A stretch of 64,000 bases of DNA. Source: Escherichia coli. GTDB lineage: Bacteria; Pseudomonadota; Gammaproteobacteria; Enterobacterales; Enterobacteriaceae. The stretch's first letter is position 1, and each line of letters begins with the position of its first letter. A program made the position numbers and the translations under genes. Shown piece by piece: positions 52,063 through 58,349 of this stretch. The notes beneath the pieces were generated by a model. The model did no database searches. It was not told the DNA's origin and saw only the letters and a program-made list of their open reading frames with translations. Where the stretch lies: assembly GCF_044324785.1 (NCBI RefSeq), contig NZ_CP172127.1; one strand, 5' to 3'.

Positions 52063-55000
52063 ATGGAACAGTCTCTCAATTTTGAAATGTTGCGCAGCCA
52101 GTGGCCGGAACTGGCTGAACTCGCGTGTATGGCGGAACGCTATGTTCACTCCGATCCGGAAAGCTGCCTGGTTAAGCTGCGCAACTACACCGAATTGATG
52201 GTGCGCTGGTTGTATCGTCAGGAGCGGTTGCCGGAAGGTATTAAGGCTAATCTTTACGATTTAATGAATGCTGATGTCTTTACCAGCATGATGCCGGAAG
52301 CCATCATCATGAAAATGGATGCGCTGCGTATCCATGGCAACCGTGCCGCGCACGGCGGACGTATCAAAGCTAAAGATACCTACTGGCTGCTCAAAGAAGC
52401 GTATTTGTTGGGAATTTGGCTGTATGTTCGCTACGCCCACGGTAATGTTGATGACTGCCCCAAATTTACACTCCCTCCATTAACACAATCTTCAGGTCGT
52501 GCAGATGAAAAACGTCTGGAAGATGCAATCAAGGCTCAGGATGAAAGCCGTGAGCGCGAACTGGCGCTACAACGCGCACTACAGCAAGAACAGGAAAAGG
52601 CCGAACACCTCACTCAACGCCTGAATGAAGCCAGAGCGCGTAACCAGCATGTTGCCGATATTCTCTCTATTGATGAAGCTGAAACCCGCCGTCGCCTGAT
52701 TGACTCTCGCCTGCTTGCTGCTGACTGGAATGTAGGCGAAGAACTTAAAAATACCGATCAGGTTACACAGGAACATCCAGTTAAAGAACAGCCTACCGCT
52801 ACCGGTGACGGTTATGCGGACTATGTCTTGTGGGATGAGGCACACAAACCGCTGGCGGTGGTGGAAGCAAAAAAAACCAGCGTCAATGCCGAGCAAGGAC
52901 GAATTCAGGCCCGGCTGTATGCAGACTGGCTGGAAAAAGAATACGGTCAGCGTCCGGTCATCTTCTACACCAACGGTTACGATATCTGGCTGTGGGATGA
53001 CCATAAAACTCATGGTTATCCCCCGCGTCGGGTGTTTGGCTTCTACAGCAAGGAAAGCCTGCAATATCTTATTCAGCAGCGTGAAACCCGTCTACCGCTG
53101 AACAGTGTGCCGCACGTAAAAGACAACGAAGGTAAGGCCGTTGCCGGACGTTTGTACCAGCTTGAAACCATTGCCCGCGTTAGCGAACGGTTTACCAATA
53201 AATATCGTCAGTCATTAATCGTTCAGGCCACCGGCACCGGTAAAACCCGTGTAGCGATTGCACTGAGCAAACTGATGATTGATGCCCGCTGGGTAAAACG
53301 AGTCCTGTTTCTTTGCGACCGCAAGGAACTACGTAAACAGGCGGCGAATGCCTTTAATCAATTCACCAATGAGCCGCTGTATGTGGTCGGGAAATCGAAG
53401 AAAGCAGACAGGCAGAATGCCAGGATCTACATCGCCACCTATCCTGGTATGATGAAAATCATGGACCATTTCGATGTCGGTTATTTCGATTTGATCATCG
53501 CCGATGAATCCCACCGCTCTATCTACAACGTCTACGGCGATCTGTTTAAGTATTTTGATGCCCTCCAGATTGGCCTGACGGCCACGCCGATTGACATGGT
53601 GAGTAAAACCACTTTCGGCCTTTTTGGTTGTGAAGGACGTATTCCTACCGCCAACTACAGCCTGGAAGATGCCATCGCCGATAACAATCTGGTTCCCTAT
53701 GAGGTTGTCACACACACCACAGAATTCCTGCGCGAAGGCATCAAACGGGAGAAATTAAGCGACGCACAAATCCGCGAGCTGGAAGAACAAGGTATAGATC
53801 CCAATACGCTGGAGTTTGATGGCAAGGCGCTGGATGAGGCGATCTACAACAAAGACACCAACCGCTATATCCTGCGTAACCTGATGGAAAATGGCCTGAA
53901 AGATCGGGACGGCCAGTTGCCAGGTAAAACCATCATTTTCGCCCGTAACCACAAACACGCGCTGCTGTTGAATGAATTGTTCGACGATATGTATCCGCAG
54001 TTTGCCGGACGCTTCTGCCAGGTCATCGACAACTACGATCCCCGCGCCGAGCAACTGATTGATGATTTTAAAGGGCTGGATGAAAGCACCAACAAAGAGC
54101 TGACCATCGCTATCTCTGTTGACATGCTCGATACCGGTATTGATGTCCCGGAGATTGTGAATCTGGTCTTTGCCAAACCGGTCAAATCAAAAGTGAAGTT
54201 CTGGCAGATGATTGGCCGTGGTACGCGCCTCTGTCCGGGGTTGTACGGTTACGACGATAACGGCAAACCGCTGGATAAACAGAAATTCCGCATTTTCGAT
54301 CACTGGGGCAATTTTGAGTATCACGAGCTGCATGCCGAAGAGGCCGAAGTCACAGCGACAAAATCGCTTGCACAAAAACGCTTCGAAGCGTGGGTTATGC
54401 TGGGGGCCGCTGCGCAACGTAAATTCGACAAACAGGCGGTGGATTTAGTTGCTCACCAGCTTCGCGAGCAAATCAACGCACTGGATGAAAAGTCGATTGC
54501 CGTACAGGAAAAGTGGCAGCAAAAAGCGCAGTACAGTGATGAAAAGGTGCTGCGCCAGCTTTCTCCGAAAACACAGCAGGATCTGCTATCTATTCTAGCC
54601 CCGCTGATGCAGTGGCTGGACGTGCGCGGGCAAAGCGATGCCATACGCTTTGATATGGATATTCTGGCGGCGCAAACTGCCCGTTATACCAACCCGGAAG
54701 AGCTGGATGTGCTCTGGCCGGCCATCGTCGAAAAAGTGGAGCGCCTGCCGCCGCATTTGGCGCAGGTGCAGCAACAGGGACAACGAATCAATCAGCTTCG
54801 TGATCTAGGCTGGTGGAAGCAGGCCAGTCTGGAAGAGCTGGAGGATATCCGCATTCATTTGCGCGGTATCATGCACCTGATGGAAAAAGACACGACGCCG
54901 AAATTTGGTTCGATACAGGTGGATATTACCGAAGATGCGAACCTGATCCAGACGGAGACCCGCAAAACCAACATCCGTTCGATTGATTTCAAACTCTATC

Positions 55001-55476
55001 GCCAGCAGGTTCAGGGGGCGCTGGAGCCGCTGTTCCAGCAAAATCCGGTGCTGAAGAAAATCCGCAACGGCGAGCCAGTCACGCAAAACGAGCTTGATGA
55101 ACTGGCGAAGCTGGTGCTGATCCAGAACCCCAACGTTGATATCCGGGCACTGAAAGAGTTCTATCCGCAGGCAACCGCCAGCCTGGATAAACTTTTGCGT
55201 ACCATCATCGGGATGGACAGCGACGCGGTGGAAGTGCGCTTTGCTCAGTTCGCCGCTGATAACAGTCTAACCAGCCAACAACTGCGCTTCCTGTCATTGC
55301 TGAAAAACCACATTCGCGATTACGGCACCATTGAAATGCGGCAGCTCTTTGAACAGCCTTTTACGCATATCCACAACGAAGGCGTTACCGGTGTGTTCCC
55401 TGATATAGAGCAGATCGCCCGCCTGCAAAAGATAGTCGAAGAGCTGGGTGTTGTGACCGACGCAGCGACGGTATAA
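52063..55476 (+). CDS. hsdR: Type I restriction endonuclease R subunit (second system), with N-terminal DUF4145-like and coiled-coil region
   Basis: ~1137 aa from ATG 52063 (RBS aagg); PD-(D/E)xK nuclease motif (DYVLWDEAHKPLAVVEAKK), helicase motifs (QATGTGKT, DESHRS). Confidence 0.9.
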   Translation: MEQSLNFEMLRSQWPELAELACMAERYVHSDPESCLVKLRNYTELMVRWLYRQERLPEGIKANLYDLMNADVFTSMMPEAIIMKMDALRIHGNRAAHGGRIKAKDTYWLLKEAYLLGIWLYVRYAHGNVDDCPKFTLPPLTQSSGRADEKRLEDAIKAQDESRERELALQRALQQEQEKAEHLTQRLNEARARNQHVADILSIDEAETRRRLIDSRLLAADWNVGEELKNTDQVTQEHPVKEQPTATGDGYADYVLWDEAHKPLAVVEAKKTSVNAEQGRIQARLYADWLEKEYGQRPVIFYTNGYDIWLWDDHKTHGYPPRRVFGFYSKESLQYLIQQRETRLPLNSVPHVKDNEGKAVAGRLYQLETIARVSERFTNKYRQSLIVQATGTGKTRVAIALSKLMIDARWVKRVLFLCDRKELRKQAANAFNQFTNEPLYVVGKSKKADRQNARIYIATYPGMMKIMDHFDVGYFDLIIADESHRSIYNVYGDLFKYFDALQIGLTATPIDMVSKTTFGLFGCEGRIPTANYSLEDAIADNNLVPYEVVTHTTEFLREGIKREKLSDAQIRELEEQGIDPNTLEFDGKALDEAIYNKDTNRYILRNLMENGLKDRDGQLPGKTIIFARNHKHALLLNELFDDMYPQFAGRFCQVIDNYDPRAEQLIDDFKGLDESTNKELTIAISVDMLDTGIDVPEIVNLVFAKPVKSKVKFWQMIGRGTRLCPGLYGYDDNGKPLDKQKFRIFDHWGNFEYHELHAEEAEVTATKSLAQKRFEAWVMLGAAAQRKFDKQAVDLVAHQLREQINALDEKSIAVQEKWQQKAQYSDEKVLRQLSPKTQQDLLSILAPLMQWLDVRGQSDAIRFDMDILAAQTARYTNPEELDVLWPAIVEKVERLPPHLAQVQQQGQRINQLRDLGWWKQASLEELEDIRIHLRGIMHLMEKDTTPKFGSIQVDITEDANLIQTETRKTNIRSIDFKLYRQQVQGALEPLFQQNPVLKKIRNGEPVTQNELDELAKLVLIQNPNVDIRALKEFYPQATASLDKLLRTIIGMDSDAVEVRFAQFAADNSLTSQQLRFLSLLKNHIRDYGTIEMRQLFEQPFTHIHNEGVTGVFPDIEQIARLQKIVEELGVVTDAATV

Positions 55477-57174: not shown

Positions 57175-58349
57175 GTTGGCCGATGGTGAAGTTAGGCGAA
57201 ATTTTTACTATATCTCGAGGGGGGTCTCCAAGACCTATTCAAGATTATATTACTGACTCCTGTCATGGAGTAAATTGGATAATGATTGGTGATACTGAGC
57301 CAAATTCAAAATACATTAGACATACAGCAAAAAAAATAAAGTTTGAAGGAGTGAAAAAATCCAGAAAGGTCTACCCTGGAGATTTATTACTTACAAACTC
57401 TATGAGTTTTGGGCGTCCATATATACTTGATGTTGAAGGATGTATACATGATGGATGGTTGGTTCTAAGTCCTAAAAATAATCAAATACATATTGATTAT
57501 TTTTATCATTATTTAAATTCTCCAGCTGCAAAAATCATCATATCAAACAAGGCTGCTGGTGCAGTTGTAAAAAATTTGAACTCAGATATCGTGAGAAACT
57601 TGGAAATTCCGTTCCCTCCATTTGCGGAACAGGTAAGGATAGCTTCAACTCTCGATAAAGTCGATGGCATACGTCAAAAACGCGACCAAGCCATCAAACT
57701 GGCTGATGATTTTTTGCGTGCTACGTTTTTAGCGATGTTTGGTGATCCTGTTGAAAACCCGAAGAGATGGGATGTTGCTTCTTTGTTAGAATATGGTTCA
57801 TTTAAAAATGGAATGAATTTTACGAAAGGTGAGTCAGGCTCTGTACTGAAGTGCCTGGGAGTTGGCAATTTCAAATCACTAGCAACGATTACCTGTATGG
57901 ACAATATCGGTGAAATTGAATTAAATACTCTCCCTTCAGATGATTATCTTTTGAAAGATGGTGATATCGTCTTTGTCCGTTCTAATGGTAATAAAGCCTT
58001 GGTCGGAAGATGTCTTACTATTTATCCAGGCAAAGAGAAAGTTACATTTAGTGGATTTTGTATCCGCTACAGAATAGAAAATACTGCAATCACCCCAGAA
58101 TATCTTAACTTTCTCTTCCGTACACCTTCAATGAAACAGCAAATGTTAAGCGGGGGGCAAGGAGCGAATATTCAGAATATTAGCCAAGGTACCTTATCCG
58201 CACTCAGGATACCAGTCCCTCCCTTAGAAAAACAACAGGCATTTTCTAAAGTAGTGAGTTTTCACTCGGCACTAATGGAAAAACTAGATATTAATACAGT
58301 TGAAATAGAAGATATGTTTGACTCAATCAGTCAACAATATTTTAATTAA
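57171..58349 (+). CDS. hsdS: Type I specificity subunit (second system)
   Basis: 392 aa, two target-recognition regions separated by conserved helices; AT-rich. Confidence 0.88.
   Translation: MSWPMVKLGEIFTISRGGSPRPIQDYITDSCHGVNWIMIGDTEPNSKYIRHTAKKIKFEGVKKSRKVYPGDLLLTNSMSFGRPYILDVEGCIHDGWLVLSPKNNQIHIDYFYHYLNSPAAKIIISNKAAGAVVKNLNSDIVRNLEIPFPPFAEQVRIASTLDKVDGIRQKRDQAIKLADDFLRATFLAMFGDPVENPKRWDVASLLEYGSFKNGMNFTKGESGSVLKCLGVGNFKSLATITCMDNIGEIELNTLPSDDYLLKDGDIVFVRSNGNKALVGRCLTIYPGKEKVTFSGFCIRYRIENTAITPEYLNFLFRTPSMKQQMLSGGQGANIQNISQGTLSALRIPVPPLEKQQAFSKVVSFHSALMEKLDINTVEIEDMFDSISQQYFN

Follow-up and report, generated by a model that had tools for sequence, protein, structure and literature searches.

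The question raised by this locus is whether a second set of hsd genes, lying close to a type IC restriction-modification (R-M) system, forms a complete type I system of another family, and on what it is carried. We examined a 64,000-nucleotide stretch of Escherichia coli DNA (contig NZ_CP172127.1 of assembly GCF_044324785.1; the window), in which the genes in question, hsdR, hsdM and hsdS, occupy positions 52063 to 58349. These genes very probably constitute a functional, classical three-subunit type I R-M system of a separate gammaproteobacterial family, carried as cargo by an integrase-bearing island at leuX. It adds one more member to a known kind of system, and public genomes already contain it, for the most part annotated. 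What goes beyond routine annotation is that the family falls outside the four classical families tested, that its HsdR is under-annotated, and that this HsdR bears a HEPN-like domain for which we found no functional study.

Subunits and family of the second type I system

The three genes are adjacent open reading frames (ORFs) on the plus strand, in the order R-M-S and free of frameshift or truncation.

52063–55476, plus strand: hsdR, restriction subunit, 1137 aa (Pfam, NCBIfam and PADLOC matches)
55540–57174, plus strand: hsdM, N6-adenine methyltransferase subunit, 544 aa (N6_Mtase and HsdM_N matches; PADLOC)
57171–58349, plus strand: hsdS, specificity subunit, 392 aa (Pfam; full-length PADLOC match)

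The ATG at 52063 is the hsdR start, one codon downstream of the TTG at 52060 given in the ORF list. With E-values of 1e-21 to 1e-60, the Pfam domain matches of the three subunits rule out chance. Full-length type I models of PADLOC recognized HsdR (PDLC03047, 909 bits), HsdM (PDLC03021, 637 bits) and HsdS (PDLC03119, 532 bits), the EcoKI-like and EcoAI-like R models giving just ∼125 bits on the same HsdR. The Pfam architecture of HsdR runs DUF4145 (aa 25–112), HSDR_N, ResIII/SWI2_SNF2/DEAD, Helicase_C and EcoEI_R_C, and together with an AlphaFold2 (AF2) model of aa 1–340 divides the subunit as follows.

52063–52467, plus strand: N-terminal DUF4145 domain with HEPN fold, aa 1–135
52543–52665, plus strand: long charged helix leading from the HEPN to the nuclease domain, aa 161–201 (AF2 model)
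52675–53082, plus strand: PD-(D/E)xK nuclease domain, aa 205–340 (HSDR_N match; alpha/beta fold in the model)
53149–54243, plus strand: superfamily 2 (SF2) translocase motor, aa 363–727 (ResIII, SWI2_SNF2, DEAD and Helicase_C matches; conserved motifs)
55000–55428, plus strand: C-terminal EcoEI_R_C domain, aa 980–1122 (PF08463, E 6.7e-21)

In an alignment of 31 full-length relatives that included EcoKI and were 26–88% identical, the nuclease triad Asp-253/Glu-268/Lys-270, the Walker A motif Gly-391 to Thr-395 (GTGKT), the DExH motif (Asp-481, Glu-482, His-484) and motif VI (Gln-715 to Arg-722) were all invariant. The ADYVLW...VVEAKK motif aligned with the nuclease motif of EcoKI. Both the PD-(D/E)xK nuclease and the SF2 ATPase motifs by which a type I restriction subunit is recognized were thus found in HsdR. 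HsdM matches HsdM_N and N6_Mtase (E 1.3e-60), and alignment with EcoKI HsdM located motif I (DPACGTGGF) and the catalytic motif IV (NPPF, aa 306–309). A second complete type I system in R-M-S order about 10 kb from the type IC genes had been proposed from the nucleotide sequence; the three intact ORFs, their full domain sets and the complement of catalytic motifs bear this out, and the distance from the end of the type IC hsdR (41200) is 10.9 kb.

The system is widespread. It is carried by 428 of 5426 complete E. coli genomes at 80–99% DNA identity, and identical proteins occur on >200 public E. coli contigs. Protein clusters at 90% take in Salmonella, Citrobacter, Klebsiella, Enterobacter, Serratia and Lonsdalea, and full-length relatives of 50–88% identity with the same domain set were found in Photorhabdus, Aeromonas, Vibrio, Shewanella, Pseudoalteromonas, Pseudomonas and others. 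Four distant loci, of Photorhabdus, Enterobacter, Aeromonas and Vibrio, were inspected, and all of them retain the R-M-S order.

To place the system we compared it with one reference for each classical family. Type IA was represented by EcoKI of K-12 and type IB by the hsdRMS genes in the immigration control region (ICR) of O157:H7 Sakai, which is reportedly 99% identical to EcoAI (PMC2481252). The type IC reference was the neighbour within the window, whose HsdR is a true type IC subunit (2253 bits, full length, against EcoR124I HsdR). For type ID we used EcoMII of EC958, an hsdM-hsdS-hsdR operon beside Mrr with an HsdR reportedly 92% identical to that of StySBLI (PMC4659465); its protein accessions are the same as those of the ICR system of ATCC 25922. 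The ICR of the latter strain yielded the third ICR family, which was tied to StySBLI via EC958. In strain Ec-042, the ICR sampled through yjiA contained only a penicillin acylase pseudogene and lacked hsd genes. The identities were as follows.

Type IA (EcoKI): HsdR 26% over 885 aa; HsdM 28%
Type IB (Sakai): HsdR 26% over 561 aa; HsdM 29% (best pairwise HsdM match, E 5e-54)
Type IC (in the window): HsdR 25% over 212 aa of the motor (E 2e-13); HsdM 24% over 458 aa (E 5e-21)
Type ID (EcoMII): HsdR a 45-aa local match only; HsdM 21%

Published identities between families are 17–26% for HsdR and 25–33% for HsdM, against >90% within families (PMC2481252). The 21–29% found here is therefore of the between-family level, and judged by these distances the system lies outside types IA, IB, IC and ID, the four classical families compared. 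The scores of the NCBIfam HsdR models agree, with 333 bits for the EcoKI-type model NF008521 (cut-off 729) and 232 bits for the EcoAI-type model NF046051 (cut-off 550), neither of which assigns the protein to type IA or IB. The hsdM gene of KpnBI (type IE) was reportedly described by Chin et al. in 2004 as 2631 bp long, compared with 1635 bp here, a difference that argues against membership of that family although it is no test of it. The alignment with EcoKI, EcoAI-type, type IC and StySBLI-type subunits upheld the suggestion that the system is of a different family from its neighbour. The accompanying statement that its M and R proteins are unrelated in sequence to the type IC pair was too strong, as the matches in HsdR and HsdM identify them as distant homologues.

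In architecture the present system is nearest to type IA for HsdR and to type IB for HsdM. It shares with EcoKI the R-M-S order with hsdR apart from a coupled hsdM-hsdS pair, the HsdR succession of DUF4145/HEPN domain, helical linker, PD-(D/E)xK nuclease, SF2 motor and EcoEI_R_C with identical R..GN..H residues, and the HsdS order TRD1-CR1-TRD2-CR2 (TRD, target recognition domain; CR, conserved region). It differs from EcoKI in identity (HsdR 26%, HsdM 28%, HsdS 26%), in its helical linker, which is shorter in EcoKI (alignment gaps at ∼aa 140–200), and in its location, which is a plasmid or a mobile island at leuX or selC rather than the ICR. The R-M-S order and the nuclease, motor and EcoEI_R_C core of HsdR are also common to the EcoAI/EcoEI type, whose HsdR has 810 aa and lacks the HEPN domain and linker and whose HsdS has 584 aa compared with 392 aa here. 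The EcoR124I-type neighbour (35240–41200) is likewise a three-subunit type I system of the same leuX hotspot, but has the order M-S-R and an HsdR with T1R_D3-like and EcoR124_C domains. The StySBLI type (EcoMII), again a three-subunit type I system of E. coli, differs in its M-S-R order next to an Mrr-like gene and in the T1RH-like_C domain of its HsdR.

Could the genes nonetheless form a divergent branch of type IA (or IB), with subunits able to assemble with EcoKI-type (or EcoAI-type) partners? Such a reading would fit the R-M-S order, an HsdR laid out as in EcoKI with DUF4145 and EcoEI_R_C included, an HsdS of the type IA order S1-D1-S2-D2, and the EcoKI-type model as the best NCBIfam match of HsdR. 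We consider it very unlikely, given that 26–29% identity is what has been published between families (PMC2481252), that the NCBIfam scores stay below half of the equivalog cut-offs, and that PADLOC holds a separate full-length model for the present family. A Lactococcus pair ∼40% identical did complement, so that sequence alone is not decisive, but 26% is far lower. We attach still less probability, close to none, to the genes being parts of some other multi-gene defence system with type I-like M and S subunits, such as MADS or BREX. Pointing in this direction, HsdM has weak matches to MAD2 and HsdS to MAD5 in NCBIfam and PADLOC, but these reach 117 and 66 bits, far under the cut-offs of 720 and 400, and although the N terminus of HsdR matches the candidate-system protein PDC-M16A, no other MADS or BREX genes are adjacent and R, M and S are the only genes kept together in five genera. 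A separate type I family thus remains the preferred assignment.

EcoMIII of EC958, which also has the R-M-S order and lies on GI-thrW (43665–49631 of the examined locus), was tried as a member of the same family and rejected, its HsdR being 23% identical over 234 aa. It is an active system with the motif RTACN4GTG, itself at between-family distance from types IA–ID. With EcoMIII and the present family both outside IA–ID, the classical names miss at least two E. coli families; the A–E family names do not cover all E. coli type I systems.

Specificity and transcription of the hsd genes

Two Methylase_S stretches were found in HsdS with Pfam, and an alignment of alleles showed two variable TRDs around a conserved centre.

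57195–57605, plus strand: HsdS TRD1, ∼aa 9–145 (near-identical to E. coli W, unlike SCU-152)
57606–57770, plus strand: HsdS central conserved region, aa 146–200 (kept in all four alleles aligned)
57771–58205, plus strand: HsdS TRD2, ∼aa 201–345 (common to the SCU-152 allele, unlike W)

TRD1 equals that of the W allele but for two substitutions, TRD2 differs from it, and the recombination breakpoint between the two alleles falls at 57776, in the central conserved region. Conversely, TRD2 matches the SCU-152 allele (84% DNA identity) and TRD1 does not. As read from these alignments, each of the two TRDs has been swapped independently of the other with respect to the alleles of W and SCU-152. Exchange of TRDs is the classical route by which type I systems gain new specificities, and its occurrence here speaks for functional selection on the family. 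Between the HsdS proteins of the two systems in the window only short conserved-region similarity was detected and no TRD similarity, and two independent specificities are therefore to be expected; two specificities without exchange of subunits would be the natural expectation. A documented precedent is strain EC958, in which two type I systems are active, with two motifs (PMC4659465).

If the subunits act as in classical type I enzymes, HsdS with its two TRDs and two HsdM subunits (M2S1) would recognize a bipartite site and methylate one adenine in each half. At an unmethylated site two HsdR subunits would join via the C-terminal domain (R2M2S1), and the predicted SF2 motor would pull DNA in using ATP while the PD-(D/E)xK nuclease would cut at a distance. 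The specificity has been altered through exchange of TRDs with alleles carried by other islands. As to expression, hsdR would form a separate transcription unit that ends at an intrinsic terminator, and hsdM and hsdS would be translationally coupled through the GTGA in which the GTG start of hsdS overlaps the hsdM stop codon; GGAGGGG precedes this start.

The regions flanking hsdR bear on this probable arrangement.

51575–52062, plus strand: non-coding region 5′ of hsdR, 488 bp, which moves with the cassette (homology to SCU-152 begins at 51573)
55489–55518, plus strand: terminator-like hairpin and T-run 3′ of hsdR (terminator scan, folding and relatives)

The hairpin (55489–55508) begins 12 nt past the hsdR stop codon and has an 8-bp stem with 6 GC pairs. 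Its sequence is AAGCCCCG-GCAG-CGGGGCTT, then TTGTATTT, with TTTTGTATTT as the T-run, and its free energy of −14.6 to −15.5 kcal/mol corresponds to z = −2.7 against shuffled sequences. The terminator scan of the region gave 10 sites versus 7.4 expected, which is not significant alone. At the same place, the Photorhabdus locus (HsdR 88% identical) has a GC-rich hairpin and T-run with another stem, AAGCCCAG..CTGGGCTTTTATATTTTT, and so does the Enterobacter ludwigii locus (HsdR 79% identical), with the stem AGCCTC..GAGGCTTTATCTTTT. Hairpins in the same place with differing stems in three genera, kept in structure rather than in sequence, make the separate terminator after hsdR, a feature of the original prediction, well supported.

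A perfect TATAAT at 55472–55477, overlapping the stop codon of hsdR, recurs at the Photorhabdus and E. ludwigii loci; by eye, a TTGTGA lies 15 nt upstream of it, and a transcript from this pair would start just before the hairpin. The element could be a weak promoter with such a start, or could reflect coding constraint. We do not claim it as the hsdM promoter, given the 15-nt spacer and the start just before the hairpin. Within 51575–52062 we found no noteworthy ORF, no Rfam match and no consensus promoter, and an Rfam scan of 51000–59300 returned nothing below E 0.5.

Several of these observations, together with one from annotation, weigh against a functional system. A consensus scan found no sigma-70 promoter upstream of hsdR, nor was a consensus promoter present in the 31-nt stretch that separates the hairpin from the hsdM ATG, and the NCBI pipeline names the R subunit just “DEAD/DEAH box helicase family protein,” a generic label through which automated surveys could score the locus as M and S without a restriction subunit. 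The genes might be intact and the system silent or inactive in the strain, for example through restriction alleviation or poor expression of hsdMS beyond the terminator, with the type IC specificity alone expressed. The missing recognizable promoters in front of hsdR and hsdM would fit such silence, as would the position of a hairpin and T-run just 31 nt before the hsdM start codon and the low transcription of a type I methyltransferase on another island in EC958 (PMC4659465). That same methyltransferase, EcoMIII, nevertheless methylated >99% of its sites (PMC4659465). Moreover, all motifs of the present system are invariant, its ORFs are full length in hundreds of assemblies, and ongoing TRD exchange argues for selection on specificity. 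Silence therefore seems to us improbable, and we retain the reading of a functional type I system.

The HEPN-like N-terminal domain of HsdR

The sole point at this locus that could open something new is the HEPN-like domain of HsdR. Residues 1–135 were modelled confidently (pLDDT 94), and the closest structural matches of the model are HEPN-domain proteins, namely TT1696, ST0689 and the HEPN domain of sacsin, with further matches to the SO_3166 toxin, Csm6, LsoA and RnlA. The four-helix HEPN fold was thus found in the predicted structure. This fits the literature, which assigns DUF4145 to the HEPN superfamily and had recorded fusions to modules of restriction endonucleases and SF2 helicases (PMC3710099). 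In the AF2 model of aa 1–340 the domain is followed by a low-confidence linker (aa 141–164), the helix of aa 161–201 and the alpha/beta nuclease domain. An N-terminal extension made up of a DUF4145-like domain and a coiled coil had been predicted; the DUF4145 part stands, both as a Pfam match and as a HEPN fold, whereas in place of the coiled coil there is one predicted helix of ∼41 residues.

Nor is the extension special to the present system, since EcoKI HsdR carries it too: EcoKI aligns from residue 1, its DUF4145 match being sub-threshold. The HEPN domain and linker are absent from type IB HsdR, and the domain is therefore dispensable for type I function. Residues Arg-89, Gly-92, Asn-93 and His-97 (RxxGNxxxH) are invariant in all aligned HsdR proteins, EcoKI (26% identical overall) included. 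The spacing of the arginine and histidine is Rx7H, compared with R-x(4–6)-H in the motif used to define HEPN domains. Closer in this respect is RAZR (PD-T7-4), a DUF4145 RNase in which Arg-146 and His-154 are both required for defence (PMC13017515). Its two residues are eight apart, as are Arg-89 and His-97 of HsdR, but RAZR is a stand-alone zinc-finger and HEPN abortive-infection protein, whereas here the domain is the N terminus of a type I R subunit.

The HEPN domain of the present and EcoKI-type HsdR proteins might be more than a structural appendage and serve as a sensor, or as an RNase that is active or regulated, giving the restriction enzyme a second output. Such an output could be an abortive-infection-like response once phage anti-restriction proteins block restriction. 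We regard the RNase or sensor reading as unlikely, though it gains some plausibility from the invariance of the putative catalytic arginine and histidine across HsdR proteins just 26% identical overall, from the absence of the domain in type IB HsdR, which shows that type I function can do without it, and from the same-spaced DUF4145 domain of RAZR, a proven RNase effector. A literature search on HsdR and HEPN returned no functional study of the domain.

The match between HsdR aa 4–211 (52063–52695) and the N terminus of PDC-M16A (138 bits, profile positions 3–208 of 930) indicates that the HEPN and linker module is reused in another putative defence protein.

The leuX locus and its other genes

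The window spans the leuX defence hotspot, which is hotspot 37 of the E. coli pan-genome (PMC12707154). Positions 16000–40900 of the window are collinear (97.8% identity) with strains such as 1303, whose genes run fim, nanC/M, HNH, a phosphorothioate-DNA-binding nuclease, McrCB, DUF4942 and the type IC hsdM-S-R genes, directly abutting leuX. In the window just a trace of leuX follows the type IC hsdR.

41425–41441, plus strand: leuX tRNA 3′-end remnant (attachment-site repeat), 17 nt with one base missing (alignment with leuX of 1303 and W)

The remnant lies between the type IC hsdR and an AbiEii gene, is the only exact match in the window and is followed by foreign sequence. ARAGORN found no intact tRNA in the window; on contigs with identical proteins the intact leuX tRNA and the integrase lie beyond the right end of the window. 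Over positions 41385–57776 the window shares 97% identity with the leuX island of E. coli W, which bears an integrase; the type I system of W is of the same family but has another HsdS TRD2 and other downstream cargo. The island order is AbiEii, DUF6088, DUF4942, CbtA/YeeU, RadC, DUF932, Gp2, helix-turn-helix (HTH), GTPase, WYL, hsdR, hsdM and hsdS, and on the contigs with identical proteins the island ends with hsdS, a 228-aa protein, Dsr1, a 5′-nucleotidase, an SBD-HNH nuclease, the integrase and leuX. From this context we conclude that the two type I systems sit on two elements stacked at one attachment site; the view that both belong to one island does not hold, as the remnant lies between the type IC system and the integrase-borne island.

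A cassette spanning 51573–58461 also occurs on a 94-kb plasmid and in the selC island of SCU-152. Among the complete E. coli genomes of the collection, none had the whole 34000–58900 stretch at ≥80% coverage, and the collection thus offered no annotated counterpart for the pair of systems. DUF4942 gene regions occur twice, at 34070–34953 beside the type IC system and at 43025–43882 in the W-type island. The former is 95% identical to the W island copy, a duplication suggesting that an older island of this kind left the type IC system behind as cargo. An island-bearing strain would probably have two independent type I barriers, plus McrBC, Dsr1 and the phosphorothioate-dependent nuclease in the same hotspot; two such barriers bear on transformation and phage susceptibility, with modest practical consequences.

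Further genes lie on either side of hsdRMS.

48954–51574, minus strand: genes divergent from hsdR for a WYL/HTH protein, a dynamin/LeoA-like GTPase and a protein of 261 aa that has no known domain
58371–59057, plus strand: low-GC ORF of 228 aa between hsdS and dsr1, with two predicted N-terminal membrane helices
59098–62889, minus strand: full-length Dsr1, a SIR2-domain anti-phage protein (NCBIfam 1670 bits, cut-off 1400)

The genes of 48954–51574 are conserved island backbone in W and strain IrN and are missing from the selC-island copy of the cassette. For the 228-aa ORF no match was found in Pfam, NCBIfam or PADLOC; in PHROGs its N-terminal half matches only phrog_8999 and phrog_33781, families of unknown function. 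The hsdS, 228-aa ORF and dsr1 arrangement was the same in every contig inspected. The Dsr1 gene is convergent with the 228-aa ORF, and a strong bidirectional hairpin (59062–59094) is common to both. In E. coli W two other hypothetical genes replace the 228-aa protein and Dsr1.

A second integrase-bounded element of E. coli W (1–12373 of the examined locus) encodes an S subunit, large hypothetical proteins, a HerA-type helicase and a Ser/Thr kinase, a set reminiscent of a MADS-type system; the type IC remnant stands in its place in the window. Among the distant loci, the Vibrio contig MNLD01000047.1 (1–4253 and 6001–12419 of the examined locus) resembles the cargo of a type I-F CRISPR-associated transposon.

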